Positions 10,392-40,644 of a stretch of DNA of 45,956 bases are shown here, one piece after another (the first letter of the stretch is position 1; each line of letters begins with the position of its first letter). The stretch lies in IMG/VR virus record IMGVR_UViG_3300043443_000309; one strand, given 5' to 3'. The position numbers were made by a program, and so were the translations under genes. Under the pieces are notes generated by a model, which saw only the letters and a program-made list of their open reading frames with translations, was not told the origin of the DNA and did not search any database. The DNA is from an uncultured virus (IMG/VR IMGVR_UViG_3300043443_000309). Taxonomy: Duplodnaviria; Heunggongvirae; Uroviricota; Caudoviricetes.

Positions 10392-10436
10392 ATGATTATG
10401 CCGATCAACTATGGGTATGCGTGCATAAAATGCTAA
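10392..10436 (+). pseudogene. 5' stub of uvsE
   Basis: Reads MIMPINYGYACIKC*, matching INYGYPCINM of the intact uvsE downstream. Confidence 0.8.
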
Positions 10437-10468
10437 TATCCTACTATTTATAGATAGGAGTGTGTTTT

Positions 10469-11056
10469 ATGGAAACTAAAAAATGTAAAGACTGTGAGCA
10501 AGAAAAAGAGATAAGTGAATTCTATATCAGGAAAGATAGAAGAAATGCACACAGTTGTTATTGTAAGACTTGTCATCTTGCCCGCAACAATGCAGCAAGA
10601 GATAGAAATATAAACACTAAGAGAAGAACGAAGGACAACTGGCAACAGTGGGCTTCTAGAGAAGATAACAAAGCAAAACGTCGTGAATATGCTAAAGAAT
10701 ATTATGCTAAAAGATCAAAAAATGAACCATTTTATCGCTTGAAAACTAGACTTGGAAGTTGGATCTTAAGAGGCATAAAGAAACAAAACGGCTATAAAAC
10801 TAGTAGCATTTGGAAGTATCTTCCATATACAGCCGAAGACCTAAAAAAACACTTAGAAAGCCAGTTTGAAGACTGCATGAATTGGGATAATCACGGCAAC
10901 GGTGAGGGGTTTTGGAATGTGGATCATATTTATCCGCAATCACTTCTTCCATACGATAGTTTAGAACACCCAAACTTTGTAAAATGTTGGGCACTTGAAA
11001 ATCTTAGACCCCTACGCTGGAAAGATAACTTACTAAAAAGTAATAAAACAAACTAA
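10469..11056 (+). CDS. free-standing HNH endonuclease with N-terminal Zn finger
   Basis: CKDC..CKTC; WNVDHIYP..ENLRPL..DNLLKSNK; AT-rich. Confidence 0.85.
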   Translation: METKKCKDCEQEKEISEFYIRKDRRNAHSCYCKTCHLARNNAARDRNINTKRRTKDNWQQWASREDNKAKRREYAKEYYAKRSKNEPFYRLKTRLGSWILRGIKKQNGYKTSSIWKYLPYTAEDLKKHLESQFEDCMNWDNHGNGEGFWNVDHIYPQSLLPYDSLEHPNFVKCWALENLRPLRWKDNLLKSNKTN

Positions 11057-11070
11057 CAAATGGAGTGTTT

Positions 11071-12036
11071 GTGCAACTGAGAATCAACTACGGCTATCCG
11101 TGTATCAACATGCAACTCTCGCAGCCGGTTTTGTTTGGTGGCAAGCCAAAGAAGACTGAGCCTATCACAACTAACCGCACGATGATCAAGTCTACTTTTG
11201 AGCGTCGTGGTATCAAGTATGCTTCTGAACTTGCTCTACAAAACGTCAAGGATCTATACAAGATCCTTGTTTGGAACAAGCAGAACTTCATTTACTTCTA
11301 TCGGCTGTCTTCCGACATTTTCCCATGGGCGTCGGAGTACCAGTTTGAACAACTGCCCAATCACGATGAGATTGTTGATTGGATGACCAAGATCGGCCAG
11401 TATGCTAATGTAAATAACATTCGCTTGACCTCACATCCCGGTCCTTTCAACAAGCTAGCATCTTCCGACGAGCGTGTTATCCGTCAGACTGTTCGCGATT
11501 TGGAAATTCATGGGTGGGTTCAGGACAAGCTTTTGATGCCGCGTACTCCGTGGTCTAAGATCAACATTCACGTTGGTGCGACCTACGGCAATAAGGCGAA
11601 GGCTGCTGAATCATTCTGTCGTAACTTCGAATTGCTTTCTGATGCTGTAAAGACCCGTCTTACTGTCGAGAACGATGACAAGCCTTCTTTGTTCTCTACC
11701 GGCGACTTGCACGAAATGATCAGTAGCAAGATCAACATTCCGATTGTTTTCGACTACCATCATCACAGTTTGCACAATGGCGGACTTGATGAGAAGGAAG
11801 CATTGCAAATGGCTGCTTCCACTTGGGGCAGGATCAAGCCTGTCGTTCACTATTCTGAAAGTCGTTCGATTGAGCAGAACAACCCGAAGATCAAGCCCCA
11901 AGCACATTCCGATTATGTCAATACTTTGCCTAATAATCACGATGTGTTGTACGACTGCATGATCGAGGCAAAGATGAAAGAGCTAGCTTTGTTGCGTGCC
12001 GTCCGAGTTCACCGTGGCTTGACAACTGCTGCTTGA
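11071..12036 (+). CDS. uvsE: UV damage endonuclease UvsE
   Basis: GYPCIN, YRLSS, HPGPF, IHVG, LTVENDD, FDYHHH, HYSES, AHSD, MIEAKMKE. Confidence 0.95.
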   Translation: MQLRINYGYPCINMQLSQPVLFGGKPKKTEPITTNRTMIKSTFERRGIKYASELALQNVKDLYKILVWNKQNFIYFYRLSSDIFPWASEYQFEQLPNHDEIVDWMTKIGQYANVNNIRLTSHPGPFNKLASSDERVIRQTVRDLEIHGWVQDKLLMPRTPWSKINIHVGATYGNKAKAAESFCRNFELLSDAVKTRLTVENDDKPSLFSTGDLHEMISSKINIPIVFDYHHHSLHNGGLDEKEALQMAASTWGRIKPVVHYSESRSIEQNNPKIKPQAHSDYVNTLPNNHDVLYDCMIEAKMKELALLRAVRVHRGLTTAA

Positions 12037-12061
12037 CCACTCAACCCTACTAAGTTATACT
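12019..12061 (+). promoter_or_regulatory. early promoter
   Basis: TTGACA then TTGACC-N17-TATACT. Confidence 0.7.
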
Positions 12062-12082
12062 AACAATACAAAAGGAGATTCC

Positions 12083-12352
12083 ATGTTTGAAGAAATCAAT
12101 GAAGAGACTGACACCGACCTTTCCACCAAGAGCGAGAAGCTTGTTGAGTACATTCGCACTCTAAAGGCTATCGAAGATGCTATGGAACCTTATAAGGAGT
12201 CTAAGCGTGAATTGCGTTCTGACTTCGTGAAGAATGGCTTTCTTACTAAGGACGACATTTCCACGATTACCCGTGCGTACCGAATGTTGAAGAAGAATGA
12301 GAGCCTTGATGCACTTGTGGAGGCATACCAGACTTTGCGAGGTGCTAAGTGA
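12083..12352 (+). CDS. small helical protein, possibly T4 DsbA/GapR-like dsDNA-binding
   Basis: 89 aa coiled coil; AGGAG RBS; family call is tentative. Confidence 0.5.
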   Translation: MFEEINEETDTDLSTKSEKLVEYIRTLKAIEDAMEPYKESKRELRSDFVKNGFLTKDDISTITRAYRMLKKNESLDALVEAYQTLRGAK

Positions 12353-12807
12353 TGTTGGAGTATTACGCTCTTCGTCACGCCCGTTTTCATCCGACGAGGG
12401 CTAACCCTTCTGATGCTGGGATTGACTTGCCTTTCAATCCAGCAAACTTCGAAGCCATTACCATTCAGCCGGGAGAAACCAAGATCCTTGGCACCGGTAT
12501 GAAGTTCGGAGTTCCGCATGGTTACATGATGCAGATTATGAATCGTTCTTCTGTGGCAGCAAAGCGCCAGCTTATTGTTGGTGCTTGTGTGGTAGATGCC
12601 GGTTACAATGGTGAAGTATTTGTCAATCTTCACAACATTGGAAGCCAAGAACAAGTTATTGAACCGGGAGATAAAATTGCACAAGGTGTCTTCATTCCTG
12701 TCGTCAATGCGCGGCTCATTGAAGCTCTTGACGATGAGCTATACGATAGGAGCAGTATTGTTATTTCGAATCGTGGTGACGGCGCTCTCGGGAGTACGGG
12801 ACGATGA
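12349..12807 (+). CDS. dut: trimeric dUTPase
   Basis: AGIDL, RSS, VVDAGYNGE, IAQ, RGDGALGSTG. Confidence 0.95.
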   Translation: MMLEYYALRHARFHPTRANPSDAGIDLPFNPANFEAITIQPGETKILGTGMKFGVPHGYMMQIMNRSSVAAKRQLIVGACVVDAGYNGEVFVNLHNIGSQEQVIEPGDKIAQGVFIPVVNARLIEALDDELYDRSSIVISNRGDGALGSTGR

Positions 12808-13079
12808 CGTATGAAGTTGGGGATTTCGTTTCCGCTGATAATTATTGGGCAGTAGTCGTTGGAAAATACGAGAACTCTCCTGATTTTTATTGGGTAAGTT
12901 ATCTTAGTCGAGAAGACCTGAAAGGTGGAAAGAAACCTCAACTCTTGCCAAGCTTTCTGATTTCACCTTTGCCCGGTAAGTATGATCTTGAAAAACAATA
13001 CTTTCAAGGTTTGCTTGGTTGGGCAAGACGGAAACACCCCAACCTCAACATCAAGTTCATACAAAAGGATCCAGAATGA
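12804..13079 (+). CDS. hypothetical protein
   Basis: ATGA overlap. Confidence 0.6.
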   Translation: MTYEVGDFVSADNYWAVVVGKYENSPDFYWVSYLSREDLKGGKKPQLLPSFLISPLPGKYDLEKQYFQGLLGWARRKHPNLNIKFIQKDPE

Positions 13080-29064: not shown

Positions 29065-29098
29065 GGGAGAATGTCCCGAGCGGCAAAGGGGGCGTGCT
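29065..29098 (+). pseudogene. 5' half of a tRNA-Tyr-like gene
   Basis: GGGAGAATGTCCCGAGCGGCAAAGGGGGCGTGCT: acceptor 5' strand and Tyr-type D arm, ending at the anticodon loop. Confidence 0.75.
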
Positions 29099-29844
29099 TA
29101 TTCCCTAGTTTGGTGTCTGAGAATGTGTTTTCTAACAGCACTGTCTGAGACACCAAGCTTTTTGCCAACAGAAACATAAGATGAATCTTGTACCATTTGC
29201 TGTAATTCTTCAAGTGTGGGCCATTCGATCTTGGGTTTGGAGTAGACATAAGAACTACAAGAGCGACATCTTTTTGATCTACGCTCAACAGCAATACCGC
29301 AATCAGTACAAGTTGAGTTATTGATTTTTCTAGGTACTTTCTGCTTCTTTTCTTTATTTCTTTCGTTTGGTAGATGCTCGCAATAACGTCCACGATTCTT
29401 GCCGGAGTAGGTTTCGGTTTGGCTGTGACAATTGGGACATAAGAACCGAAGGTTTTCAAGTCTGTTATCAGTTCTGATACCATTGATGTGGTCTAGATGT
29501 AGAGAGATTTTTTGATTATTCCACTCTGAAATGTGGCACTTAGAACATTCATAGGACAATAACCCAGCTTCTAACATCCTTTTCTTCATTCTGCCGACGT
29601 TCGTATAGCTTGAATTTTCAATTAGAATTTCTTCAAGAGAGTAGATGGGGTTGTTCTTGTTCTCTCTAGTTTTCGGACTGAAGTGATTTGTTTCTACATC
29701 AAGAGCGGATACTTTCCTATGAAAAGTTGTGTAGTTGCCATTAGTAGGTTTCAATCCTAATCTAATTAGAGCCTCGCGAATAGACGAACTATTTGCGACT
29801 GCCTCTCTAAATTCAGTGTCTTCATAACGGCATTTGTCGAACAT
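29098..29844 (-). CDS. HNH endonuclease with C-terminal HTH-like domain
   Basis: LHLDHINGIRTDNRLENLRFLCPNCHSQT; VGKKLGVSDSAVRK. Confidence 0.92.
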   Translation of the reverse strand: MFDKCRYEDTEFREAVANSSSIREALIRLGLKPTNGNYTTFHRKVSALDVETNHFSPKTRENKNNPIYSLEEILIENSSYTNVGRMKKRMLEAGLLSYECSKCHISEWNNQKISLHLDHINGIRTDNRLENLRFLCPNCHSQTETYSGKNRGRYCEHLPNERNKEKKQKVPRKINNSTCTDCGIAVERRSKRCRSCSSYVYSKPKIEWPTLEELQQMVQDSSYVSVGKKLGVSDSAVRKHILRHQTRE

Positions 29845-29915
29845 GCTAAGTCTCCTTGTTGGGCCTGTAATAAATAGTTGTGTGTTCGACTAAAAGAATA
29901 AATAAACATTTTTGT

Positions 29916-29944
29916 TTGACAGACGATAAAGAAGAGATTATAAT
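29916..29944 (+). promoter_or_regulatory. promoter for tRNA-Tyr/Thr
   Basis: TTGACA-N17-TATAAT. Confidence 0.8.
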
Positions 29945-29957: not shown

Positions 29958-30039
29958 GGGAAGGCGGTAAAGTTGGAGAGTTACGGCTGGCTGTAAACCA
30001 GTTCCATTAGGTGAGGGGGTTCGAATCCCTCCCTTCCCA
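29958..30039 (+). tRNA. tRNA-Tyr(GTA)
   Basis: Cloverleaf GGGAAGG/CCTTCCC, GCTGG-CTGTAAA-CCAGT, long variable arm, TTCGAAT; C at position 8. Confidence 0.88.
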
Positions 30040-30608: not shown

Positions 30609-30826
30609 AGTTTTGGTTGTACTACTTCTACTATTCGTTGAAGTATCTGTATTATTCAGTATTCAAAAAGCAGTTTGAAAAGGGTGACTTACTAACAATG
30701 GAAAAGGATGTATACATGGTGACAACCGTTACTCCTTTGACAGTAACGATGCGAAAGGTAAGAGACTTCGATAACACAGAAACAACAAGGATTATCGACG
30801 GTCTAGACGATGTAAATAAGCTATGA
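30605..30826 (+). CDS. hypothetical protein
   Basis: AAGGAG RBS, ATGA overlap. Confidence 0.6.
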   Translation: MKFWLYYFYYSLKYLYYSVFKKQFEKGDLLTMEKDVYMVTTVTPLTVTMRKVRDFDNTETTRIIDGLDDVNKL

Positions 30827-31269
30827 CCGTAATAGATAATCTATTTTACAACTATTACGAAGCACTAGAAACACAAGGCAAAGGCGGCGATGCATTCTTG
30901 ATTTACTCTATGTGGGTCATGGAATGCCTAAAAGACTTGCTATCCAAGCATAGTGAGATCCCAGCAGAATACGTCGAAGTGTACGACGCTGCTTCACAAT
31001 GGCTTGCTGGCGATCTACCTTATGACCAGCTAGAACAATGCTTCTACAATCTAAACATACCAGTGGAACCAGCAGAAGACGCTGTAAGTACCTGTTTATT
31101 TGCACTATTAGGAGAAGGTGATGGAGTATCCCATGTTGAAGGTGAATCGAGAATTGCTTTTTTGTTGGCAAGTAATGAAGAAGAAGCAATCGAAATGAGG
31201 ATGAACCATTATTTCTTGCTCATGCAAATCGCTGACGAGTATTTCAAGGCTAACGAAAGCAAGACCTAG
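30823..31269 (+). CDS. hypothetical acidic helical protein
   Basis: ATGA overlap. Confidence 0.6.
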   Translation: MTVIDNLFYNYYEALETQGKGGDAFLIYSMWVMECLKDLLSKHSEIPAEYVEVYDAASQWLAGDLPYDQLEQCFYNLNIPVEPAEDAVSTCLFALLGEGDGVSHVEGESRIAFLLASNEEEAIEMRMNHYFLLMQIADEYFKANESKT

Positions 31270-31343
31270 ACCGGTTGACAACCTCTTGACTTGACGACGG
31301 CAACCGAACCCGCTATAATGAAAGCACAACAGACGGAGAGTAA

Positions 31344-31535
31344 ATGACGAACGACGACATTCGCGGTTATGTTCTTATGCTGGCAATCACAGCATTCATT
31401 AGTTTCTTGGGCGGTTTGTGGGTTTCCCAAGTAAATTGGAATAATGGTTGTGAAAGGGAATGTTTGCCTTTTGCTATTGATCGGGATAGGACTATGAACG
31501 ATTACACTTGTCGCTGCTTGACTGATGGAGAATAA
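31344..31535 (+). CDS. small TM/Cys protein (paralog of 43288..43479)
   Basis: TM plus GCEREC.PFA.DRD.T..Y.C.C. Confidence 0.7.
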   Translation: MTNDDIRGYVLMLAITAFISFLGGLWVSQVNWNNGCERECLPFAIDRDRTMNDYTCRCLTDGE

Positions 31536-31536
31536 A

Positions 31537-31863
31537 ATGAATAAGTGGCCCGAAAACATTAGGTTATTTGTCAATGGTGGTCCCGATGATAGTTGCCAAC
31601 TATGGGACATTTGGCACGACGGAGGACCGGGAGGTCATTGTTTCGATGCTTATTCCGAGCAAATGGCAAATGAGATTGTGTCTGCTATTGATGAACTTCA
31701 AAACCTAAGAGAAGAAAATAAGCGACTTGTTCTTGAACTATCAAAAATCGATAAGTTGCTCCGTGAAGGCTTCGACATTATCAACGAGCATCTTTCATCT
31801 TCTCACGAAGTTTGGATGGAAGAAACAGCAAAACTATTGGAGAATAATAATGAACATCGGTGA
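31537..31863 (+). CDS. hypothetical protein (paralog of 42929..43288)
   Basis: MNKWP..IRLFVNGGPDD.CQLWDIWHDGGPGG. Confidence 0.75.
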   Translation: MNKWPENIRLFVNGGPDDSCQLWDIWHDGGPGGHCFDAYSEQMANEIVSAIDELQNLREENKRLVLELSKIDKLLREGFDIINEHLSSSHEVWMEETAKLLENNNEHR

Positions 31864-32446
31864 TAAAGTAATGCCCAAATCTGCTGCCGGTTTGTGGCTG
31901 GCTGATCAACCTAGAAACAGTGATTACAATCAAAAGCGTAAGTCGCTCTGTGTTTTCCGTGGTGTAGGAACTATTGTGGATGTGGTGGATTGTGTTATTG
32001 ATTACGATCAATGGCCTGCCACTTACGATGATGGAGAAGCACGCTACGCAAACATAGGAAAGGTTGATTATCGCAGTTGCTTTGTTCGCTTTGAGGACGG
32101 AGAAGGATGGGCCGGAGCAGGAGCATTGATCCCGGCAGACCAAGTAATGCCCGGACTGCCTAGCGATCTTCCAACATTTACACAAGCCGAAATCGACACG
32201 ATAATTCTACAAAATAGAATTCACGCTTGGCTTGTAAATACCTCCGAGTGGGGAGCGAGTTGGCAAATTTCTAGATACGGAACTGGATTTGAACTTTCCT
32301 TTCTACGACGCGGTTCCTATGAGTTTGTTGGAAAGTTCTATTGGAACCTAACTTGGATTGCTGTTCCGTTTGACGGAGAAGCTGCTGGATTTTCAACGGC
32401 AGAAGAAGCAAGACAATACATAGAGAAGTTCGCAAAGGAGGACTGA
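31850..32446 (+). CDS. hypothetical protein
   Basis: GGAG RBS, MNIGDKV start. Confidence 0.6.
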   Translation: MNIGDKVMPKSAAGLWLADQPRNSDYNQKRKSLCVFRGVGTIVDVVDCVIDYDQWPATYDDGEARYANIGKVDYRSCFVRFEDGEGWAGAGALIPADQVMPGLPSDLPTFTQAEIDTIILQNRIHAWLVNTSEWGASWQISRYGTGFELSFLRRGSYEFVGKFYWNLTWIAVPFDGEAAGFSTAEEARQYIEKFAKED

Positions 32447-32447
32447 A

Positions 32448-32678
32448 ATGACTGAAACTTGGGAAGTGCTAGAAAGTTGGGAAAACTTCAATCGTTATCG
32501 CCCTGAAAATCCCGAAGTTTGGTGGACCTTACGCCGTCGAACTGCTCCCGGTGGATGGCTTTATCAAGCAAGAACCTTATTCAAAGAGAGTGGTGGTGGA
32601 ACTTACGCCTACCGCATCACATCAGAGCAAATGGCTTTGACCTTTGTTCCAGCACCTTCGGCCTTGACGACCCCTTGA
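32448..32678 (+). CDS. hypothetical protein
   Basis: GGAGG RBS; PGGWL motif. Confidence 0.65.
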   Translation: MTETWEVLESWENFNRYRPENPEVWWTLRRRTAPGGWLYQARTLFKESGGGTYAYRITSEQMALTFVPAPSALTTP

Positions 32679-32732
32679 CTTGACAGCGACCCTCGACCAC
32701 GCTATAATGAAAGCACAACGAACGAGGAATAA

Positions 32733-33029
32733 GTGTCTGACCCTGAAATCAGAGTTAGCTCAAAAGGCACAAAAGAGTGGCGGCTGAATGGACTGCTTCA
32801 TCGAGAGGACGGCCCTGCTATTGAATGGGCTGACGGATCAAAAGAATGGCGTTTGAATGGTAAATTTCACAGGACTGACGGCCCTGCTATTGAGTGGATT
32901 AGTACTGCTGGTGTCACAAAAAAGTGGTATTTGAATGGCACAAAGGTTTCTTGGCAAGAAGTTCTCAAACAAGCAGAGACAGAAGAAATCGAGTTGAGAA
33001 TTCTCATCGCCGCCTTGACGACCGCTTGA
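32733..33029 (+). CDS. HREDGPA-repeat protein (2 repeats)
   Basis: W.LNG.LHREDGPA.E units; C-terminal IELRIL. Confidence 0.8.
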   Translation: MSDPEIRVSSKGTKEWRLNGLLHREDGPAIEWADGSKEWRLNGKFHRTDGPAIEWISTAGVTKKWYLNGTKVSWQEVLKQAETEEIELRILIAALTTA

Positions 33030-33192
33030 CAAGAAAACGATTGACTGTCCGCCACCACCGCGTTATAATAACAACAACAAAAGAGGGAACCATGAACGAG
33101 TACGATGATCTTTACTTTGAGCCAGTCATGTACGGGTTTGATCCCGACTATGATCCGGTTCCTGACGATCTAGACAATCTTTGACAAATAAA

Positions 33193-33379
33193 GGCGAGTA
33201 AGCATCATTTTATAATGCGTTCAAAGTCTGCACGAACGCCACGATCTAGTCCTATTATCTAGGATCCCGAAAGGGAAGTTGACGCTTTGACTAGGGAGGC
33301 AAGCCCTAAAGAGAGCTACCGCTTACATTCGTGAGAATGGCCGGGTCTTTTATCTAGTTATGCTGACCCGGCCTCGCCA
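33193..33379 (+). ncRNA. unidentified structured ncRNA
   Basis: Intergenic; terminal helix GGCGAG/CTCGCC encloses several helices including two GNRA-capped hairpins. Confidence 0.65.
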
Positions 33380-33408
33380 CCCCCTTCTAACACAACAAAG
33401 GAAATAAC

Positions 33409-33561
33409 ATGAACGACACTATCGAATTTGGAAGCTTCAACGAAGAACAAGTAAGTTCTCTGATCGAGCAGCTTGATCTCGTCGCGGCACAAACTGGTCG
33501 AGAATTGAAGTTTGAGCACATTTCTATTTGGCTTATGATGTGTAAGCCAGCCGTCGCGTAA
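33409..33561 (+). CDS. small hypothetical protein (50 aa)
   Basis: AAGGA RBS, MNDTIEFG.. Confidence 0.5.
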   Translation: MNDTIEFGSFNEEQVSSLIEQLDLVAAQTGRELKFEHISIWLMMCKPAVA

Positions 33562-33607
33562 AGAAGATGTAAACCGATTTGACGAACACCAACCAACAGG
33601 ATACATT

Positions 33608-33796
33608 ATGACTACCAACAAGGAGAAGCGTATGCACATCGGATCTAAGGTTATTGCTAAGGGTAATCCTCGTAATGCAGGTATTATCATCGAACGTCCT
33701 GCAATTCACGGATTTTGGACCGTTCGCTGGTGGCGCGGTGAGAACCGAGGAGAAATCCGCATTTGTTCTGAGGAAAAGCTGGAACTCATTGCATGA
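33608..33796 (+). CDS. small hypothetical protein
   Basis: Downstream of TTGACG-N17-TACATT (33579-33607); real start may be the internal ATG after AGGAG. Confidence 0.55.
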   Translation: MTTNKEKRMHIGSKVIAKGNPRNAGIIIERPAIHGFWTVRWWRGENRGEIRICSEEKLELIA

Positions 33797-33821
33797 GCCT
33801 AGTTAGTTAGAGGGCACCATA

Positions 33822-34079
33822 ATGAGTGACAACGACGACGAAGATAAGAAGAACCTGCCTAGAATTACGTTCATTGTCCGTAAGGACGAGGAAATGACAC
33901 CGGAGCAGGAAGAAAAACTAAGAAATCGGTTGGCTATGTTACTTGGTGCCTATGCCGAAAGCCAAGAAGAAGCAGCAAAGCTAACTCATGGCCAAAGCAA
34001 GAAAAGAAAGAAGGTTGTTTTTCAACCTTATAAAAGTGTACCAAATCCAGCATTGAACAGGGAAGAATTAGATGACTAA
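33822..34079 (+). CDS. hypothetical protein
   Basis: GAGG RBS. Confidence 0.55.
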   Translation: MSDNDDEDKKNLPRITFIVRKDEEMTPEQEEKLRNRLAMLLGAYAESQEEAAKLTHGQSKKRKKVVFQPYKSVPNPALNREELDD

Positions 34080-34440
34080 AGTATTTGTATACGGAACTTT
34101 GAGGGCAGGAGACGTAAATCACGTTTACTTGAAGCAAAGCAGCTTTGTGGAAAAGAACACCACAGAACCTCAGTATACCTTGGTCAATCTTGGATTGTTC
34201 CCAGCAATGCTCGCAAAGGGCAATACTGCCGTTCACGGTGAAGTCTACAATGTTGACGATAGAACCTTGCTAACTTTGGATCGACTTGAAGGACACCCAA
34301 ACTTCTATGTTCGTGAGCAAATCAAACTTAGCAATGGTGAACAAGTCAACGCTTATGTCATGCCCGATAATAACGTAGGAAAGCATACAGTTATCGAATC
34401 GGGCGACTGGTTCCAAGTACCGTCCTACAACGTCACATGA
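34072..34440 (+). CDS. gamma-glutamylcyclotransferase/AIG2-like
   Basis: VFVYGTLR, FPAM, GEVY, LDRLEG. Confidence 0.9.
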   Translation: MTKVFVYGTLRAGDVNHVYLKQSSFVEKNTTEPQYTLVNLGLFPAMLAKGNTAVHGEVYNVDDRTLLTLDRLEGHPNFYVREQIKLSNGEQVNAYVMPDNNVGKHTVIESGDWFQVPSYNVT

Positions 34441-34622
34441 CATTTCAGCAATTCATAGACGGCCTGAATAGAGCCTTCGAAGCCAGCGAAAATCCCGGTT
34501 GGGATAAAAAGCAGGTTCTTCTTGAAGCTCTTAGAGAATACCGTTACGATCTTTGGGTTATTATTGCTGGACAAGAATTCGAAGTCAGTAATCTAATGCC
34601 ATTTTTGCAAAGTCGATGGTGA
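34437..34622 (+). CDS. hypothetical protein
   Basis: ATGA overlap. Confidence 0.5.
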   Translation: MTFQQFIDGLNRAFEASENPGWDKKQVLLEALREYRYDLWVIIAGQEFEVSNLMPFLQSRW

Positions 34623-34715
34623 GTGTCGTTGACGAAATCTTGACTTGACGCCGACCGTCAGCCGTGGTACATTATGAACAGTCGAGGGCAGAGACTATAA
34701 ACCTGCCCGCACCTT

Positions 34716-34788
34716 GGTCCCATAGTTTATGTGGTGAGAACATAGCCCTTTCAAGGCTAGGAGTCGAGTTCAAGTCTCGATGGGACTA
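34716..34788 (+). tRNA. tRNA-Glu(TTC)
   Basis: Cloverleaf, TAGCC-CTTTCAA-GGCTA. Confidence 0.92.
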
Positions 34789-35480
34789 CTTTTCTTTTTA
34801 CTATGAACTCTAATGTGCTTTCTAATAGCATTATCAGAGACACCTAACTTCCTACCTACGGCTACATAAGAAGTTTCTCCTACCATCCTAGTAAGTTCTT
34901 CTACCGAAGGCCATTCGATCCTCGGCGCGCCAGTTATAGGAAGATTACAGGCAACACAACGAGTTGAGCCTCTTGTTATTTCAACACCGCAGTCAACACA
35001 GTTATAGATTTTCTTTTTCTTTTTGACGTTTCTACCAGCATAAGTTTCTGTCTGACTATGGCAGTTGGGACACAGTAGACGCAAGTTTTCTATTCTATTG
35101 TCATTGCTGACCCCATTAATGTGATCTAAATGTAAACTTAAACCTGCTCCATTCCACTCGCTAATGCCACACTTTGAACAACAATAGTCAAGTAAGCCTT
35201 CCTTTGTAAGTCGCTTTTTTAGCTTGTCAGAGCTTCTATAGGTCGAATCTTGAACTAGAATTTCTTCAAGCTCTCGTTTATTGAACTTTGTGTAAGCACG
35301 CCTAACGATAGAAACGCCGAAATGGCTTATGTCCAATTTTAGCGCCTTAACTCTTGAGTGGAAAACAGTGTAAGAAGCCCCGCTAGCGGCTAAATCTAAT
35401 TTTCGTAAACAGTCTCTTATACTGTTGCTGGTTTTTACAACCTCAACGAACTCTTGTTCAGTAAACGACTTTGATTTCAT
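34770..35480 (-). CDS. HNH endonuclease with C-terminal HTH-like domain
   Basis: LHLDHINGVSNDNRIENLRLLCPNCHSQT; start MKSKS after ACTACTTA/GGGAG. Confidence 0.92.
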   Translation of the reverse strand: MKSKSFTEQEFVEVVKTSNSIRDCLRKLDLAASGASYTVFHSRVKALKLDISHFGVSIVRRAYTKFNKRELEEILVQDSTYRSSDKLKKRLTKEGLLDYCCSKCGISEWNGAGLSLHLDHINGVSNDNRIENLRLLCPNCHSQTETYAGRNVKKKKKIYNCVDCGVEITRGSTRCVACNLPITGAPRIEWPSVEELTRMVGETSYVAVGRKLGVSDNAIRKHIRVHSKKKSSPIET

Positions 35481-35605
35481 TCGAACTCTCCCTTTGTTAC
35501 ATAGTAAGTAGTTCGGGGTTCGACAAAAAGCTTCGGTTGACAGAAAATTCACTTGACGACCGCTGACCGATGCGTTATAATAACAACACAACAACAGGAA
35601 GGAAT

Positions 35606-35860
35606 GTGTCTGATAAATCTAAAATGCTGATCTTGAAAGAACAAATGTTTCAAGGCAGAAGTTATGATTGCAAGGTCGTTATGTATAAACCCGACCGGGA
35701 CAAAACAAGAATTTACTGTGAAACCCAGCCAACAAACGGCGCAATGCTCATGACACTTTTCTTTACTTCTATGGAAAAAGCAGAAGATGGTTTTGACCTT
35801 TTGACCTCTATTGTAAAGAGAACGCTTTCCTACCAAGAAAACAAGCACACCAAGGAATGA
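35606..35860 (+). CDS. hypothetical protein
   Basis: Follows promoter 35553-35581. Confidence 0.55.
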   Translation: MSDKSKMLILKEQMFQGRSYDCKVVMYKPDRDKTRIYCETQPTNGAMLMTLFFTSMEKAEDGFDLLTSIVKRTLSYQENKHTKE

Positions 35861-35864
35861 CACA

Positions 35865-36068
35865 ATGGCTTACTGCTATAAGTGTGGTGATGATTATTCT
35901 GATAAGCGCGCTTCTTTGGGCTACCGTACTTGCTTACATTGCGGTGACAAAGAAGCATCAATCGAAGCCCATCGTCGTACAAAGTGCGTTGCCCCTGCTT
36001 ATTCAAAGGGTGCCTATCAGTATGTCGGTGATGTAAAAGAAGTAATGTGGCTAGGCCGAAAGGTCTAG
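35865..36068 (+). CDS. small Zn-finger protein
   Basis: CYKCG..CLHCG..KGAYQ. Confidence 0.7.
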   Translation: MAYCYKCGDDYSDKRASLGYRTCLHCGDKEASIEAHRRTKCVAPAYSKGAYQYVGDVKEVMWLGRKV

Positions 36069-36075
36069 TATCTAA

Positions 36076-36108
36076 GCCCCGATGGTGGAATAGGTAGACG
36101 CATAAGTT
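36076..36108 (+). pseudogene. 5' half of a tRNA-Leu gene
   Basis: GCCCCGATGGTGGAATAGGTAGACGCATAAGTT; part of a 31-bp direct repeat with the intact tRNA-Leu. Confidence 0.85.
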
Positions 36109-36148
36109 ATTTTTCTTTCGTGTTTACTATTTATTGTAGGAGCAAACA

Positions 36149-36670
36149 ATGAACCTACATAAATATACGCTAGAAGAGTTGACAGAAGCCATTAGTACTT
36201 CTAGGTCCATAAGACAAGTCCTGATAAAGTTAGGAGTTGTGCCTTACGGTGGGAACTATGATGTTTTTAGGAAAGCGGTAAAATATTACGATATAAGCAT
36301 AGAACACTTTGACGGACAAGGATGGAATACCGAAGACCACTCAGGAATTCTATCGAAACAATCCTATAAAAAAACTAGAAAGCTTGAAGATATTCTGAAC
36401 AAAAATACCACTTATCCAACTTCAAAGCTTCGAAAAAGATTAGTAAAAGCCGGACTAAAACAGGAACAGTGTCAGATGTGTGGTATTACACACTGGCTCA
36501 ATATACCGGTTTCTCTTGAACTAGACCATATAAATGGTGATAGATACGATAATAGAATTGAAAATCTACGATTATTATGCCCAAACTGTCATTCTACAAC
36601 AGAGACGTACAGAGGTAGGAATAAAAGTAGATATCTAAGCCCCGATGTTGGAATAGGTAGACAACGTTGA
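36149..36670 (+). CDS. HNH endonuclease
   Basis: LELDHINGDRYDNRIENLRLLCPNCHSTT; stop codon lies inside tRNA-Leu. Confidence 0.92.
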   Translation: MNLHKYTLEELTEAISTSRSIRQVLIKLGVVPYGGNYDVFRKAVKYYDISIEHFDGQGWNTEDHSGILSKQSYKKTRKLEDILNKNTTYPTSKLRKRLVKAGLKQEQCQMCGITHWLNIPVSLELDHINGDRYDNRIENLRLLCPNCHSTTETYRGRNKSRYLSPDVGIGRQR

Positions 36671-36720
36671 TTTAAAATCAATTTCCGAAAGGAGTGCCGG
36701 TTCGATTCCGGCTCGGGGCA
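36639..36720 (+). tRNA. tRNA-Leu(TAA)
   Basis: Cloverleaf, GTTGA-TTTAAAA-TCAAT, variable arm. Confidence 0.93.
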
Positions 36721-36739
36721 CTAACAATCTGAGTTTTCA

Positions 36740-36976
36740 ATGACACCAGCGCAACAGAAATACTTCGAAGAATACGACAAATACAAACACATTCTAATCG
36801 AAGAAAATCGAAAGTATGTCGTTACTAACAGACCTTCTACGGTATACGAAGTAGTGTCTATTAGCCAAACAGACGAACGTGTTTCGCTAAAGAATTCAAC
36901 TGGCATCATTGTGTCCAAGACACTTCATTGGTGCCGCAAAAACCTTACCTTACTACTACAACAGGAGAATACATGA
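36740..36976 (+). CDS. hypothetical protein
   Basis: ORF after tRNA. Confidence 0.55.
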   Translation: MTPAQQKYFEEYDKYKHILIEENRKYVVTNRPSTVYEVVSISQTDERVSLKNSTGIIVSKTLHWCRKNLTLLLQQENT

Positions 36977-37488
36977 GCTACCTTGATACTTTGAATACTA
37001 TGAACCTTAAGGATGATACTGACATTGACATTGTTTTTACAGCTTCGGCAGATGTATGGTTTACTGACGATGTTGGCGAACACGATGTTCTTGTAAATAA
37101 GACCAATGCTTTCGAAGCATGGTGGGAGTACATGAACCTTGATACCAATCGTGAAGACCTGCAATACTTTGTTGAGGATGATAGCCACATTTACAACATG
37201 AACGGCTATCACTTGAAGCCGGATGATGAAGGTTATTCCTACGAAGATGATCGTGCAGGCGCTTATCTAGCCGTCAAGGAAAATCCGGGAGATTTGTTTG
37301 ACTTTGCTGAGTGTGAGACAATTCGTTTCGACCACAAGCGAGGACAAGTGCGCGGACAATGGACTTCTTTCATGCCTTGGTGGGCTGTTCGCGAAGCAGA
37401 GGACTTTTGGCAGTGGGTTCAGAAGTATGCTTCAAACCTTGAACTGAGCGTTAGACATAATGGTAAACAGGTTACCCTCGCTCCTTGA
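36973..37488 (+). CDS. acidic hypothetical protein
   Basis: AGGAG RBS, ATGA overlap. Confidence 0.65.
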   Translation: MSYLDTLNTMNLKDDTDIDIVFTASADVWFTDDVGEHDVLVNKTNAFEAWWEYMNLDTNREDLQYFVEDDSHIYNMNGYHLKPDDEGYSYEDDRAGAYLAVKENPGDLFDFAECETIRFDHKRGQVRGQWTSFMPWWAVREAEDFWQWVQKYASNLELSVRHNGKQVTLAP

Positions 37489-37553
37489 CAACCTCTTGAC
37501 TTGACACCGCCAGTGCCTCCGGTTATAATAGAGGCACAAAAGCGAGATCACCG

Positions 37554-37793
37554 ATGATGCCAGCGAAAGAACCTTACGAACTTCCTCTTGACATTATCGA
37601 GAGGATCGAGCAAATCAAGACTGCAACAATGGAGAATACCGAAGATCAGTTTGAATGGACAATCTTCCGTAGTCGCTACGAAGATAGCATGTGGATTATC
37701 CACCGCATCTTTGAAGATGAGGACGAAAAGGACTTTCAAATCGTTGCTTCTAGAATTGCATACCAAACGCCATACTACACTCGCAGTACTTGA
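37554..37793 (+). CDS. hypothetical protein
   Basis: Single gene between two promoter repeats. Confidence 0.6.
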   Translation: MMPAKEPYELPLDIIERIEQIKTATMENTEDQFEWTIFRSRYEDSMWIIHRIFEDEDEKDFQIVASRIAYQTPYYTRST

Positions 37794-37847
37794 CAACCTC
37801 TTGACTTGACAGCAACCGCTCCCTCGGTTATAATAAGGGAACAAAAC

Positions 37848-37920
37848 GGGCTGCTAGCTCAGTTGGTAGAGCAGGAGACTCTTAATCTCTTGGTCATAGG
37901 TTCGAATCCTATGCGGCCCA
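37848..37920 (+). tRNA. tRNA-Lys(CTT)
   Basis: Cloverleaf, GGAGA-CTCTTAA-TCTCT. Confidence 0.94.
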
Positions 37921-37943
37921 TAACAAACAAAAGCGGAGTTTTG

Positions 37944-38114
37944 ATGTACAATTATACACTTACACACGAACAGGTTGACAGAATTCTGTTGCTTCTTTCT
38001 ACACAATCAGATGAGCAAGCAACTGAAATCAAGCTTTCAATCACAAAGCAGAAGAAAGAATGCGAAAAGTGGGAAGAAAGCATTAGCAGTCAATACGTTT
38101 TCACTGGCATTTGA
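37944..38114 (+). CDS. small hypothetical protein
   Basis: GGAG RBS, MYNYTLT. Confidence 0.55.
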   Translation: MYNYTLTHEQVDRILLLLSTQSDEQATEIKLSITKQKKECEKWEESISSQYVFTGI

Positions 38115-38131
38115 CAACAAGGAAGAATAGA

Positions 38132-38413
38132 ATGAACGACTTTATTATCAACGAAAGCAATGTCAAAGACATTTGCGCTGAAATCATCGCAGGACTTATG
38201 AACATGCGAGTTCTTCCTCACGATGTAACTGGCGAAACCTTTGATAAGTGGACTTCGATTGTTGAAAAGCAAATTCGTTATGAGGCACAATACCTTCAAG
38301 ACCAAAAGGAACTTGTTCCAAAGTGCGAGATTTGCGGCGGAACAATGATGGAACATTTCTACCATCCACCGGAAGAAGATAACGATTTGAATGCCGCCTT
38401 GACAATCTCTTGA
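38132..38413 (+). CDS. hypothetical protein
   Basis: AAGGA RBS; CEICG. Confidence 0.6.
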   Translation: MNDFIINESNVKDICAEIIAGLMNMRVLPHDVTGETFDKWTSIVEKQIRYEAQYLQDQKELVPKCEICGGTMMEHFYHPPEEDNDLNAALTIS

Positions 38414-38468
38414 CTTGACAGCGATCCTCAACCACGCTATAATGAAAGCACAACAGACGGAGAGCAAG

Positions 38469-39098
38469 ATGGATGAACGCCCCGATTTATTCTTTCAAGA
38501 AAGAGAGAATAGCATTATGATGAACATTTCCTTCGGTGGAATAACCTCAATCTCTGCCGATGATGCTCGTTATCTTCTTGATAGAATTGCACAACTGATG
38601 CAAGAAAGGGATGATCTTTGGTTTCAGAAAGATCAACTAAATCGTGAAATCTCGGATGCTCTACACCTTCTTGATGCTGAAAGAACCCGAAACCAACAAA
38701 ACAACAAGGATCAACAAATGACTACCGAAACCCCGATTATCCTTGTCCAATCCGTTGATTACGATCAGAATTGGCAAACCATCACTGTTGAAGACCTCAA
38801 AGCTATTCAGCACATTGACACGATGTTTGATGGTTTCTTTTCAAGGCATCACGCTGTTTTCTCCCTCAATACCTATGAGGAGTTCTCAGAATGGATCGAG
38901 GATTATGGTTATGATGGGTACACAACCGCAGATTTCGATGAGTTTATCGAAAGGGATTTTGATTTCCTTCATTCTCCCGAGGTAAATAATCAAATGATCT
39001 CGCAGTTGAATGACTGGTTCGCAAGGTATCATAATGAAACCGAACAAAGCGAAGAAATCATTACCCTCAACGGAAAGCGTTATAAATTGATCGACTAA
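38469..39098 (+). CDS. hypothetical protein
   Basis: GGAG RBS after promoter; possible internal start at 38718. Confidence 0.6.
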   Translation: MDERPDLFFQERENSIMMNISFGGITSISADDARYLLDRIAQLMQERDDLWFQKDQLNREISDALHLLDAERTRNQQNNKDQQMTTETPIILVQSVDYDQNWQTITVEDLKAIQHIDTMFDGFFSRHHAVFSLNTYEEFSEWIEDYGYDGYTTADFDEFIERDFDFLHSPEVNNQMISQLNDWFARYHNETEQSEEIITLNGKRYKLID

Positions 39099-39102
39099 AC
39101 AA

Positions 39103-39190
39103 GGAGCTATGACCGAGTGGTTTAAGGTGCGCGATTGCTAATCGCGTGTGCCTCAAAAGGGCACCGAGGGTTCAAATCCCCCTGGCTCCG
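39103..39190 (+). tRNA. tRNA-Ser(GCT)
   Basis: CGCGA-TTGCTAA-TCGCG, long variable arm. Confidence 0.93.
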
Positions 39191-39257
39191 TTCCATTGAC
39201 AACTTTTTGACTTGACACCGCCTGTGACCCCGGTTATAATAGGGTCACACTGGAAAA

Positions 39258-39330
39258 GGGACATTAGCTCAATTGGCAGAGCGAGGGACTTTTAATCCCG
39301 AGGTTACAGGTTCAAATCCTGTATGTCCCA
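39258..39330 (+). tRNA. tRNA-Lys(TTT)
   Basis: Cloverleaf, loop CTTTTAA. Confidence 0.92.
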
Positions 39331-39334
39331 CTTT

Positions 39335-39408
39335 GATCTCGTAGCTCAACCGGATAGAGCAACGGCCTTCTAAGCCGTAGGTTACAGGTTCGATTCCTGT
39401 CGAGGTCA
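39335..39408 (+). tRNA. tRNA-Arg(TCT)
   Basis: ACGGC-CTTCTAA-GCCGT. Confidence 0.94.
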
Positions 39409-39412
39409 CTTT

Positions 39413-39484
39413 GTTCTCATAGTCTAACGGATAAGACCACTCTCTCCTAAAGAGTAGATACAGGTTCGATTCCTGTTGAGGACA
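39413..39484 (+). tRNA. tRNA-Arg(CCT)
   Basis: ACTCT-CTCCTAA-AGAGT. Confidence 0.92.
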
Positions 39485-39488
39485 TACT

Positions 39489-39565
39489 GGGGAAGTATAG
39501 GCTCTCGCTTATAACGAGTTGAAACCTTAATCGGTCACATGCGGGTTCGATTCCCGCCTTCCCCA
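39489..39565 (+). tRNA. atypical tRNA-Ile(TAT)-like RNA lacking a normal D arm
   Basis: Perfect acceptor GGGGAAG/CTTCCCC-A, perfect T arm, CTCG-CTTATAA-CGAG anticodon arm. Confidence 0.7.
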
Positions 39566-39570
39566 CTCAT

Positions 39571-39650
39571 GGCATCGTGATGGAATGGCAGACATAGGAG
39601 ACTCAAAATCTCCCGCCTTTGGCGTGTGGGTTCGACTCCCACCGATGCTA
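39571..39650 (+). tRNA. tRNA-Leu(CAA)
   Basis: GGAGA-CTCAAAA-TCTCC, variable arm. Confidence 0.93.
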
Positions 39651-39673
39651 TCAACAACCAATAAAAGGACAAA

Positions 39674-39832
39674 ATGAAGAACATCAACCTACAATACTTA
39701 TACGTTGGCATCAATCTAGCACTTGCTGTGCATTTCGGTGTCTTAGGTGACGTTAGCTGGGTGTTATTCAGCTTGGCTATGGTTGGCGTGAACATCGCTA
39801 CAATTTACCTTGTCGCGAAAGAAGAAGAATAA
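39674..39832 (+). CDS. small membrane protein (52 aa)
   Basis: AAGGA RBS; two hydrophobic segments. Confidence 0.55.
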   Translation: MKNINLQYLYVGINLALAVHFGVLGDVSWVLFSLAMVGVNIATIYLVAKEEE

Positions 39833-39835
39833 TAC

Positions 39836-39909
39836 AGCGGGATGGAGCAGTTAGGTAGCTTGTCAGGCTCATAACCTGAAGGTCGTGGGTTCAAATCCCA
39901 CTCCCGCTA
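39836..39909 (+). tRNA. tRNA-Met(CAT), initiator-like
   Basis: GAGC/GCTT D stem of fMet type; TCAGG-CTCATAA-CCTGA. Confidence 0.9.
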
Positions 39910-39912
39910 TTT

Positions 39913-39945
39913 GTCTCAATAGCTCAGTTGGTTAGAGCATCATTT
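39913..39945 (+). pseudogene. 5' half of an unidentified tRNA
   Basis: GTCTCAA-TA-GCTC-AGTTGGTTA-GAGC-A-TCATT with no anticodon 3' strand or T arm. Confidence 0.8.
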
Positions 39946-39985
39946 GAACTAGTAGACTATTTATTATCAAAAGGAGATAATAATA

Positions 39986-40540
39986 ATGTCTAAAAGTTCG
40001 GAAAGAGTAAAGAAGTGGAGAAAGAATACTAAAAATAGATTGATCCAAGCAATGGGTGGAAAATGCGGTATTTGTGGCTATGATAGAAGCAATTCTGCAT
40101 TGGAATTCCACCACATCGATCCTTTACAAAAGTCATTTACTTTAGGATCTGCTAGAGGTTCAATAGTAAACTGGGGATTGCTAGTAGAAGAAGCAAAGAA
40201 ATGTGTTTTACTCTGCTCCAATTGTCATAGAGAGGTACACGAAGGGATTGCACAACTTCCTTCCGAAATTCCAGCCTTCTTAGAAGAGTATGAGAATTAC
40301 AAAGAGATTAGAAGAGAGATAACTTTGACTGATAATACGGATAACTGCCCCGTCTGTAATAGACAAAAACACATAACTAACAACACTTGCTCGCCTGAGT
40401 GTCGAGCGATAGCGAATAGAAAAGTTATCAATCGGCCAAGTAGAGAGCAACTACTTGAACTTATAGAGATTAGTAGTTATGTTCAAGTGGGCAAGTTATT
40501 TGGTGTATCTGACAATACCATAAGAAAATGGGTAAAATAG
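39986..40540 (+). CDS. HNH endonuclease with C-terminal HTH-like domain
   Basis: GGKCGICGY..ALEFHH..KCVLLCSNCHREVH; VGKLFGVSDNTIRKW. Confidence 0.9.
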   Translation: MSKSSERVKKWRKNTKNRLIQAMGGKCGICGYDRSNSALEFHHIDPLQKSFTLGSARGSIVNWGLLVEEAKKCVLLCSNCHREVHEGIAQLPSEIPAFLEEYENYKEIRREITLTDNTDNCPVCNRQKHITNNTCSPECRAIANRKVINRPSREQLLELIEISSYVQVGKLFGVSDNTIRKWVK

Positions 40541-40569
40541 TTGTTAGATACCCGAGACAAACAAATAAT

Positions 40570-40644
40570 GGGTGATTAACTCAGTTGGCCTAGAGTGCTT
40601 GTCTGTTAAACAAGGAGTCGCTGGTTCGAATCCAGCATCACCCG
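40570..40644 (+). tRNA. tRNA-Asn(GTT)
   Basis: CTTGT-CTGTTAA-ACAAG. Confidence 0.93.

Follow-up and report, generated by a model that had tools for sequence, protein, structure and literature searches.

Why should a phage genome hold the first few bases of a gene, then an endonuclease gene, and then a complete gene? This layout occurs repeatedly in a 45,956-nucleotide (nt) stretch of DNA from an uncultured virus of the class Caudoviricetes (IMG/VR record IMGVR_UViG_3300043443_000309), hereafter the window, which is part of the genome of a large freshwater phage. The window carries five cassettes with HNH-type nuclease genes, and four of them, at uvdE, tRNA-Tyr, tRNA-Leu(UAA) and an Arg(UCU)-like tRNA, are preceded by a short 5' stub that retains the first 25-35 bases of the old gene. 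An initial description made from the letters of this DNA, called the sequence-only reading below, had reported the order of stub, HNH gene and intact gene at four loci, and our analysis confirmed it at each of them, with the intact tRNAs found by ARAGORN. The interpretation that we favor, with a probability of roughly three in four, is that the nucleases belong to three families of free-standing homing endonucleases, whose genes spread between co-infecting relatives by intronless homing and bring along a replacement for the end of the target gene or for the whole allele. An assembly artefact is ruled out because the same layouts recur in separate studies (L001, L163 and contigs of the runs X3, X4 and X5).

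Interrupted loci and their counterparts in related phages

At uvdE, the start of the gene is found twice. The native promoter-like site (10341..10369, plus strand; TTGCCT and TATACT separated by 17 nt), arranged as it is before the uvdE gene of the viral contig L002, would now drive the stub only, an open reading frame (ORF) of 14 codons (MIMPINYGYACIKC and a stop codon; 10392..10436, plus strand) that sits behind this site and the gene's own ribosome-binding site. The 23 nt encoding INYGYAC(I) are present both in the gene-homologous part of the stub (10404-10426) and in the downstream gene (11083-11105), with 19/23 positions identical; in our comparisons of stubs with resident genes, which used local alignment and 200 shuffles, this duplicate had a z score of 6.8 and an alignment score reached by 0/200 shuffles. 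Cassette 1, which begins at about 10427, carries a ACTATTTA motif (10443-10450) and an ORF of 195 amino acids (aa; 10469-11056), together spanning 10443..11056 on the plus strand with a guanine-plus-cytosine (GC) fraction of 0.355. The resident uvdE gene follows (11062..12036, plus strand; Pfam UvdE E 7.2e-56) and starts with GTG, at 11065 or 11071, behind a new GGAG ribosome-binding site.

Uninterrupted alleles of this locus, predicted by the sequence-only reading, were found in two lineages. In L002, a 128-kb viral contig that ends short of the tRNA region and whose UvdE is 90% identical at the aa level, the upstream gene, the promoter-like site and the ribosome-binding site correspond to those of the window and lead into one uninterrupted uvdE, and in L001, a 99% relative, stub, nuclease gene and complete gene are arranged exactly as in the window. 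The second lineage (L005 and contigs of L300 and L301) carries a 65%-identical nuclease directly upstream of a UvdE that is 61% identical to that of the window. Its stub is a short ORF (MKNYGYACLKHFF and a stop codon) in native upstream context, its full uvdE has a promoter-like site and ribosome-binding site of its own 3' of the nuclease gene, and its cassette starts at the same point as cassette 1, after TGC(A/T)T and with AAAA, about 20 nt 5' of ACTATTTAT; L010 and L009, without the nuclease, have one uvdE in that context. One nuclease family has therefore settled at a single codon of uvdE in two phage groups whose upstream genes are unrelated, next to a native stub in each. No isolated phage was similar to the uvdE locus at the DNA level.

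A mirror case of this geometry is present in L001, where an additional GIY-YIG/NUMOD gene (2457-3262; Pfam E 8.6e-8) is found close to where the gene upstream of uvdE ends. This upstream gene is complete, its last 10 nt being new, and on the 3' side of the GIY-YIG gene there is a 3' stub of about 85 nt. The first half of this stub differs from the window allele at about 14 positions and its last ~55 nt, together with the flank, are identical to it, so that the stub is a mosaic.

At tRNA-Tyr, the stub (29065..29099, plus strand) comprises 35 nt, namely the acceptor strand, the D arm, the 5' strand of the anticodon stem and the first two loop bases. Its best match in the phage collection was tRNA-Tyr(GTA) of Prevotella phage Lak-A1 (27/29 from base 1), and Tyr was the best isotype among 504 distinct phage tRNAs; an exact search of viral contigs with 33 nt of the stub returned nothing, and the matches of this locus to isolated phages came through tRNA genes only. 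Cassette 2 (29098..29878, minus strand) holds a 248-aa ORF (29098-29844), whose stop codon touches the end of the stub, and a ACTATTTA motif (29871-29878). It is followed by a perfect TTGACA-17-TATAAT promoter-like site on the plus strand (29916..29944) that faces tRNA-Tyr and tRNA-Thr, and by the resident tRNA-Tyr(GTA) (29958..30039, plus strand; Rfam 45.9 bits). A contig of X5 (record 16, 9059 nt) is about 99% identical to the window at 28500-29098 and 30035-31320 and has 43 nt in place of the 936 nt at 29099-30034, so that the promoter-like site and bases 1-77 of the resident tRNA are missing from it. The 34 nt of stub, the 43 nt and a further 5 nt add up to 82 nt, the length of the resident tRNA-Tyr, after which come the same spacer and tRNA-Thr. 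Some distance upstream, the X4 and X5 contigs share a 12-nt insertion polymorphism at 28913, within a repeat-rich small ORF (28815-29033).

The fifth cassette, which the earlier description had placed against tRNA-Glu, indeed adjoins that gene, and follows the same logic without a stub. The 236-aa ORF of cassette 5 (cassette 34793..35589, minus strand; ORF 34770-35480; ACTACTTA motif 35505-35512) overlaps the last 20 nt of tRNA-Glu(UUC) (34716..34789, plus strand; ARAGORN), and the segment 34793-35589 is wholly missing from a contig of X3 (record 4) and from L161 and L163, two metagenome contigs that are 95-99% identical to the window. Compared with L161 or with L163, the window has a tRNA-Glu gene that is identical at 46/74 positions (62%), with the first 6 and last 10 bases in common, while the 108 nt upstream are identical at 107-108/108 positions and the 51 nt downstream at 51/51 in the comparison with L163; the two empty alleles agree with each other at 61/73 positions. 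A promoter-like site that faces outward from the cassette (35553-35581, plus strand) is likewise absent from the empty alleles. Given a divergent gene inside near-identical flanks, cassette 5 arrived together with a different tRNA-Glu allele and this outward site. An apparent duplication of the tRNA-Glu promoter in the cassette (z 5.5) was dropped as a candidate, since it fits an extended form of the other early promoters of the phage, and L162, a relative at 94% in GGCT, was uninformative, as it diverges past 34620 and has no tRNA-Glu there.

At tRNA-Leu, a 31-nt direct repeat brackets the nuclease gene (36069-36099 and 36632-36662; 30/31 identical; z 14.2, 0/200 shuffles) and consists of 7 nt of 5' flank and bases 1-24 of the tRNA. 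The stub (36069..36102, plus strand) includes this flank and is also present in L163 and in the X3 and X4 contigs. Cassette 3 (36126..36670, plus strand) contains a ACTATTTA motif and a 173-aa ORF (36149-36670) that is truncated after the HNH core and runs 32 nt into the resident tRNA-Leu(UAA) (36639..36721, plus strand; ARAGORN; Rfam 53.1 bits). Its family homology ends exactly where the right repeat starts (36632), and the protein lacks the zinc-ribbon and helix-turn-helix part common to the nucleases of cassettes 2, 4 and 5. Nuclease 3, which has lost this C-terminal DNA-binding part, is probably defunct, and cassette 3 looks like a decaying element. The stub and the resident tRNA also differ in a compensatory way in the D-stem, which was dropped as evidence, as its chance probability is about 0.25. 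Near this locus, a different nuclease arrangement is seen in X5 record 17, in which an HNH gene 87% identical to that of cassette 2 lies 272 nt beyond 35858 (near window 35758-35858).

The fourth stub (39913..39941, plus strand; 29 nt, tRNA-like) had tRNA-Arg(TCT) as all of its top five matches among the same 504 tRNAs. Behind it lie cassette 4 (39956..40540, plus strand), with a ACTATTTA motif and a 184-aa ORF (39986-40540), and tRNA-Asn(GTT) (40570..40645, plus strand; ARAGORN), the usual downstream partner of this nuclease family. A 9-nt sequence at 40551..40559 (plus strand), which pairs with 5 of the first 7 bases of the stub, is a weak candidate for what is left of the 3' acceptor strand of the interrupted tRNA, and could be due to chance. 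Another tRNA-Arg(UCU) was found by ARAGORN at 39335-39409. Joints at 39919/39920 with sides of 20-21 nt were disregarded, as they stem from tRNA similarity with other organisms.

Taken together, these comparisons show that the cassettes are mobile insertions, that each stub is the native 5' end of its target, and that the intact gene, or its start, beside each polymorphic cassette belongs to the inserted segment. The earlier description called the intact gene a diverged copy of the stubbed gene at the first three loci; stub and resident gene share a repeated sequence at uvdE and tRNA-Leu, and no similarity between them was detectable at tRNA-Tyr (z -0.2). The three tRNA stubs end at roughly the same place, as had been claimed, and not at exactly the same base: read from alignments, the end points are near position 33 for Tyr, 24-31 for Leu and about 28-29 for the Arg-like tRNA. 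When the tRNA genes were masked and the window was searched with a tRNA set that included two tRNAs chosen for matching the stubs (E <= 1e-3), the three tRNA stubs were the only matches. The GC fraction of the cassettes lies between 0.355 and 0.399, against 0.431 for the window.

Nuclease families and the signals in front of them

The nucleases of the window are best divided into three families, formed by cassette 1, by cassettes 2, 3 and 5, and by cassette 4. Nucleases 2, 3 and 5 match phrog_10822 (E 1.7e-54, 1.3e-47 and 2.9e-57, respectively), the truncated nuclease 3 covering profile positions 5-157 of 245. Nuclease 4 has an N-terminal HNH part that matches phrog_35854 (E 5.5e-39) and a C-terminal part shared with cassettes 2 and 5, the zinc-ribbon and helix-turn-helix region, matching phrog_10822 at positions 138-243 (E 2.4e-6). 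The earlier assignment of all nucleases to HNH was supported by Pfam HNH above the cut-off for cassettes 3, 4 and 5 (E 6.1e-7, 1.4e-5 and 1.1e-5); cassette 2 falls just below it (HNH_3, E 6e-5), and for cassette 1, which matches a PHROG of endonuclease VII (E 2.7e-12), the HNH support is weak (Pfam HNH_4 E 0.017, below the cut-off) and a sequence search of PDB gave chance matches only.

In viral contigs, both tRNA-associated families keep to the vicinity of tRNA genes. For the family of cassettes 2, 3 and 5, 53 of 80 loci, among which there are several near-duplicates, had a tRNA within 1.5 kb on either side, 33 within 100 nt and 24 within 20 nt, and tRNA-Leu(UAA) lay within 100 nt at 16/80. 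The association was found at 76 of the 80 loci of the cassette 4 family (within 100 nt at 67 and within 20 nt at 59), where tRNA-Asn was the commonest downstream neighbor (20/80; same strand, <100 nt). Other arrangements include a nuclease gene between complete tRNA-Leu(UAA) and tRNA-Leu(CAA) genes in L245, L246 and L248 (1334-2067), which are 78/83 identical and differ in the anticodon stem-loop, and one between two complete, near-identical tRNA-Gln genes, with a 3' tRNA fragment in addition, in L302 (1373-2133). In L352, from the same sample as L002, the gene for a nuclease 61% identical to that of cassette 4 is bracketed by a perfect direct repeat of 18 nt. In L175 (12561-13349), as well as in L177, a member of the family of cassettes 2, 3 and 5 (36-40% aa identity) lies antisense between the halves of a tRNA-Leu(UAA) gene whose anticodon loop is split by an insert of about 700 nt; the 5' part of this insert matches Rfam Intron_gpI at E 0.0015 with 20.7 bits, below the gathering score of 50.

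A tRNA-Ile(TAT) gene is also split at position 33 by a 511-nt insert in L267 (110-142/654-695) and L270 (598-630/1142-1183) and is uninterrupted in L268 (1111-1184); the insert may be an intron or an anticodon-loop insertion.

Every cassette ORF of the window stands by itself, with a motif, a ribosome-binding site and an ATG that belong to it alone, and two of the ORFs are on the opposite strand. The ACTAYTTA motif that the sequence-only reading had noted before the HNH genes is present there, and it is not specific to them: the window contains 12 sites against 2.41 expected (0/100 shuffles reached 12), and 7 of these precede ordinary genes, which is why we regard the motif as a general promoter-like signal of the phage that is shared by the cassettes. 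Eleven copies stand 14-27 nt 5' of an ATG with a purine-rich ribosome-binding site, and the twelfth stands 41 nt before another copy. PHROG assignments did not reveal whether the genes behind the motif are late or structural ones, so that it is at most a candidate late promoter. The region 28400-40800 also contains six perfect TTGACA-17-TATAAT sites among 44 promoter-like sites (20.5 expected), several with an extended, doubled TTGAC form, and two such promoters are carried inside the minus-strand cassettes 2 and 5.

Probable intronless homing and its alternatives

In the interpretation that we favor, the nuclease would cut an allele that lacks it, near codon 12 in uvdE and around the D-stem, anticodon stem or anticodon loop in tRNA genes, and the break would be repaired from a nuclease-carrying phage. 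The segment copied would comprise the nuclease gene, its ACTAYTTA motif and a replacement for the part of the target that was cut, either a new start with ribosome-binding site (uvdE) or a whole tRNA, and the two minus-strand cassettes would also bring an outward sigma-70-like promoter for the genes downstream. Where the nuclease gene lies upstream of the replacement, the 5' end of the recipient gene up to the break would stay behind as a dead stub, and where it lies downstream, as at tRNA-Glu, the target would be swapped without leaving one. The first left junction may have formed by short-homology or illegitimate joining and then have been passed on by ordinary homing. Both the cut sites near the stub ends and the immunity of the resident copies are inferred from where the stubs end.

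Several observations agree with this interpretation. The genes belong to homing-nuclease families (PHROG HNH families, E 1e-39 to 1e-57). Cassettes 1, 2 and 5 are present or absent in collinear relatives, and cassettes 3 and 4 were in every relative seen. Flanking donor markers have been converted together with the nuclease gene, as judged from the tRNA-Glu alleles (46/74) in conserved flanks and from tRNA-Tyr bases 1-77, which fall in the segment missing from the X5 contig; at tRNA-Glu, the relatives without the nuclease carry a very different gene between near-identical flanks. Relatives that lack the nuclease and still keep a stub and a full copy, which the sequence-only reading had named as evidence contrary to it, were seen at no locus. 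In this view the five cassettes stand at different stages of the usual life cycle, cassette 5 being polymorphic, cassette 3 truncated and probably dead, and cassette 4 having destroyed an Arg-like tRNA without replacing it.

Other results weigh against this interpretation. The sequence-only reading held that a second copy keeps the function of the target, which agrees with loci 1-3 and not with locus 4: there an Arg(UCU)-like stub is followed by tRNA-Asn, a gene of another isotype, so that the target is not restored, and restoration is thus not obligatory. Its prediction of empty alleles was borne out at uvdE and, by length and position, at tRNA-Tyr, where the single gene of the X5 contig is recognized from its length, its position and the identity of its first 34 nt only; for tRNA-Leu and the Arg-like tRNA there was none among the matches listed, cassette 3 being carried by L163 and the X3 and X4 contigs and cassette 4 by the X3, X4 and X5 contigs. 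The tRNA-Leu repeat takes in 5' flank, which a foreign donor explains no better than a duplication on the spot, and flank is similarly included in the L352 repeat, which is composed of 9 nt of flank and the first 9 nt of tRNA-Asn. The uvdE stub is closer to L002 (2 mismatches in 23) than to the resident gene (4 mismatches), a difference that is not significant because L002 is only ~80-85% identical to the window; this identity held throughout, and a sliding comparison of the two revealed no conversion tract. Finally, the nuclease-linked tRNAs were not less canonical by Rfam, with 58.6 bits for tRNA-Glu against 62.7 and 53.2 for the empty alleles.

Among the alternatives, the stubs, at least that of tRNA-Leu, could be scars of a collapsed tandem amplification of a unit made of the tRNA and a truncated nuclease gene, as reported for SegB and tRNA-Tyr of T6 under Septu defence, where, in the passages available, a 718-bp repeat of tRNA-Tyr and C-terminally truncated segB is joined by microhomology (PMC13096335). 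Locus 3 resembles this system in the fusion of a truncated nuclease gene with a tRNA 5' end, the truncation falling exactly at the start of the right repeat (flank and 5' end of tRNA-Leu), and the 30/31 identity of the repeats with their 7 nt of flank and the family nuclease between near-identical full tRNA-Leu genes in L245, L246 and L248 also speak for it. We nevertheless consider it unlikely, as the left tRNA-Leu copy is a 31-nt fragment and not a unit, the tRNA-Tyr stub and resident share no detectable similarity and the empty allele there is one gene, and uvdE is not an anti-defence tRNA; moreover, the T6 case is described as a tandem array selected by a tRNA-cleaving defence, whereas the window has single units, short stubs and a protein target as well (PMC13096335). 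As for copy number, locus 3 holds one unit and a 31-nt partial repeat, and the contigs compared cannot show how many copies there are. The inclusion of flank outside the gene (31 nt at locus 3, a perfect 18 nt in L352) would also be expected if a transposon-like insertion had produced staggered nicks ~16-31 nt apart that were filled in, giving a target-site duplication without a donor allele, in which the stub and the start of the intact gene would once have been identical copies of one native stretch, and some HNH homing enzymes are nickases. This, too, seems improbable to us, and rather more so, since the repeat lengths vary by locus, no repeat exists at tRNA-Tyr, tRNA-Glu was swapped without duplication, and the 23-nt uvdE copies stand behind different ribosome-binding sites and different first four codons.

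It is very unlikely that two copies of each target existed first and that the nuclease gene was later inserted into one of them or deleted part of it, in which case the intact gene would not have come with the nuclease. Phage tRNA arrays often contain duplicated isoacceptors, for example in L221 and L302; however, the nuclease-less alleles at loci 1 and 2 are single genes (L002, L010 and L009; 43 nt against 936 in the X5 contig), which contradicts such an origin. We attach almost no credence to the idea that the stubs are first exons, the nuclease genes being located within self-splicing introns or within split genes whose parts are joined as RNA or as protein, even though L175 and L177 have a relative of the family of cassettes 2, 3 and 5 within a probable group I intron that splits tRNA-Leu(UAA) at the anticodon loop. 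A search of 28000-41500 and 9800-12100 at E <= 10 found neither Intron_gpI nor any other ribozyme, the distance from each stub to the start codon of the nuclease gene is only about 45 nt, the genes that follow are complete and have 5' ends of their own, and the uvdE stub ends in a stop codon. L175 shares with the window the nuclease family of cassettes 2, 3 and 5 and the target gene of cassette 3, and its point of interruption is close to where the window stubs end. It differs in having both tRNA halves and the 5' half of a ribozyme, the latter as a sub-threshold match, whereas in the window a complete second gene takes the place of the 3' exon.

Intronless homing by free-standing endonucleases is established in T-even phages, with SegB in the tRNA cluster and SegE, SegF, SegG and MobE as examples (PMC2330249, PMC2988022). 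As far as the passages at hand describe it, relatives differ in whether they have a free-standing GIY-YIG or HNH gene, the enzyme cuts the gene adjoining the insertion site in phages without it, and its gene is copied in with flanking donor markers, the preferred site of SegB lying inside a tRNA gene, the tRNA-Asn of T2L (PMC2330249). HNH genes embedded in a phage tRNA cluster are also cited there for the F-Tfl enzymes of T5, and segB is associated with tRNAs widely across phages (PMC13096335). According to the same passages, T4 seg genes occupy intergenic spacers, whereas the window insertions are inside the target and leave a stub, and the nuclease gene is accompanied by a replacement start or whole tRNA that has expression signals of its own; the passages searched in PMC2330249 mention no duplicated, truncated, remnant or pseudogene target.

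For a replacement gene end with the native end left behind, the closest printed analogue, within the parts of the source available, is found in the gene hybrids of fungal mitochondria that involve mobile ORFs (mORFs), described for atp6, atp9, cox2 and nad3 of Glomus and cited for Allomyces atp6, Rhizopus atp9 and Mortierella cox2 (PMC3630166). In those hybrids a mobile endonuclease ORF inside a gene brings a foreign copy of the displaced gene end, and the native end, by now diverged, is left on the far side of the ORF, unexpressed in the case of atp6 and cox2 (PMC3630166). An inserted ORF, a diverged end that restores the gene and a native remnant were likewise found at uvdE, tRNA-Tyr, tRNA-Leu and the GIY-YIG insertion of L001, whose 3' stub makes it the closest match in geometry, and not at locus 4. 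The fungal cases, as far as described, replace the 3' end, often have the ORF in frame, encode LAGLIDADG or GIY-YIG enzymes and affect protein genes (PMC3630166), whereas the window cassettes mostly concern the 5' end, carry HNH enzymes as separate genes with a promoter-like motif of their own and target tRNAs too; no in-frame fusion or co-expression with the host gene is seen in the window, given the stop codon of the stub and the separate nuclease genes. We found no publication on 5' stubs or tRNA stubs beside phage nuclease genes in a search that covered few subscription journals and excluded supplements. The relevant parts of PMC1524935 list an HNH endonuclease and a tRNA pseudogene in separate tables only, and those of PMC10448857 contain no passage on such stubs.

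A more tentative proposal, which we regard as possible and would not call probable, is that the stub serves as the left homology arm of a self-contained cassette composed of a 5' piece of the target, the nuclease gene and an immune target copy with its own expression signals. With target sequence in both arms, such a cassette could home into a phage that shares only the target gene, in the manner of an intron or intein and yet without splicing, into protein and tRNA genes and in either orientation (5' stubs in the window, a 3' stub in L001). The junction ..TGC(A/T)T / AAAA.. in two lineages with unrelated upstream genes, the mosaic 3' stub of L001 and the recurrence of two nuclease families as units of nuclease and tRNA fit this proposal. 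Both the identity of the uvdE junction in the two lineages and the mosaic stub of L001 suggest that crossovers can take place within the stub, which could thus work as a short arm of homology. If so, these cassettes would be minimal and portable gene-replacement units, with a bearing on the origin of mobile introns and a possible use as a design for targeted allele replacement in phages.

Homing with a replacement allele would mean, more generally, that selfish nucleases can establish themselves in phage genes that are essential and highly conserved, with no need for an intron or intein, by carrying a spare part for the gene that they break. It would account for short orphan tRNA halves and tiny N-terminal ORFs in the annotation of phage genomes, and would be a driver of fast tRNA allele replacement, as suggested by tRNA-Glu genes 62% identical within flanks that are 99-100% identical. 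In addition, the free-standing and the intron-borne members of one nuclease family would be linked through a shared target, tRNA-Leu(UAA).

Other features of the phage and its tRNA array

The window encodes a DNA polymerase III alpha subunit, a GroEL-type chaperonin, ThyX, GMP reductase and UvdE, as well as a head maturation protease, and 13 tRNA genes were found by ARAGORN. Sequencing runs from freshwater and other environments contain near-identical or related DNA (20 rows from 15 studies, two possibly being the source sample). Two neighboring proteins had no close relative in viral contigs, one giving no match and the other a best match of 46%.

A sixth HNH ORF (27343-27894; phrog_16726, E 1.2e-32) lies behind a sigma-70-like promoter and has neither an ACTAYTTA motif nor a stub, so that it is not cassette-like. 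Within the tRNA array, tRNA-Ser(GCT) (39103-39190) is missing from the X3, X4 and X5 contigs (joint from 39095 to 39197, sides of 56-86 nt), a further insertion or deletion in this region. The 89-nt tRNA-Ile(TAT) called by ARAGORN at 39478-39566 overlaps tRNA-Arg(CCT) by 8 nt and is doubtful, its Rfam match being sub-threshold and tRNA-Sec-like (27.6 bits). On the 3' side of the tRNA region, a family of ~100-200 nt repeats is present at 42378-42780, 44174-44375 and 45868-45956, and the same family occurs in L352 (2700-2914) with about 80% identity.

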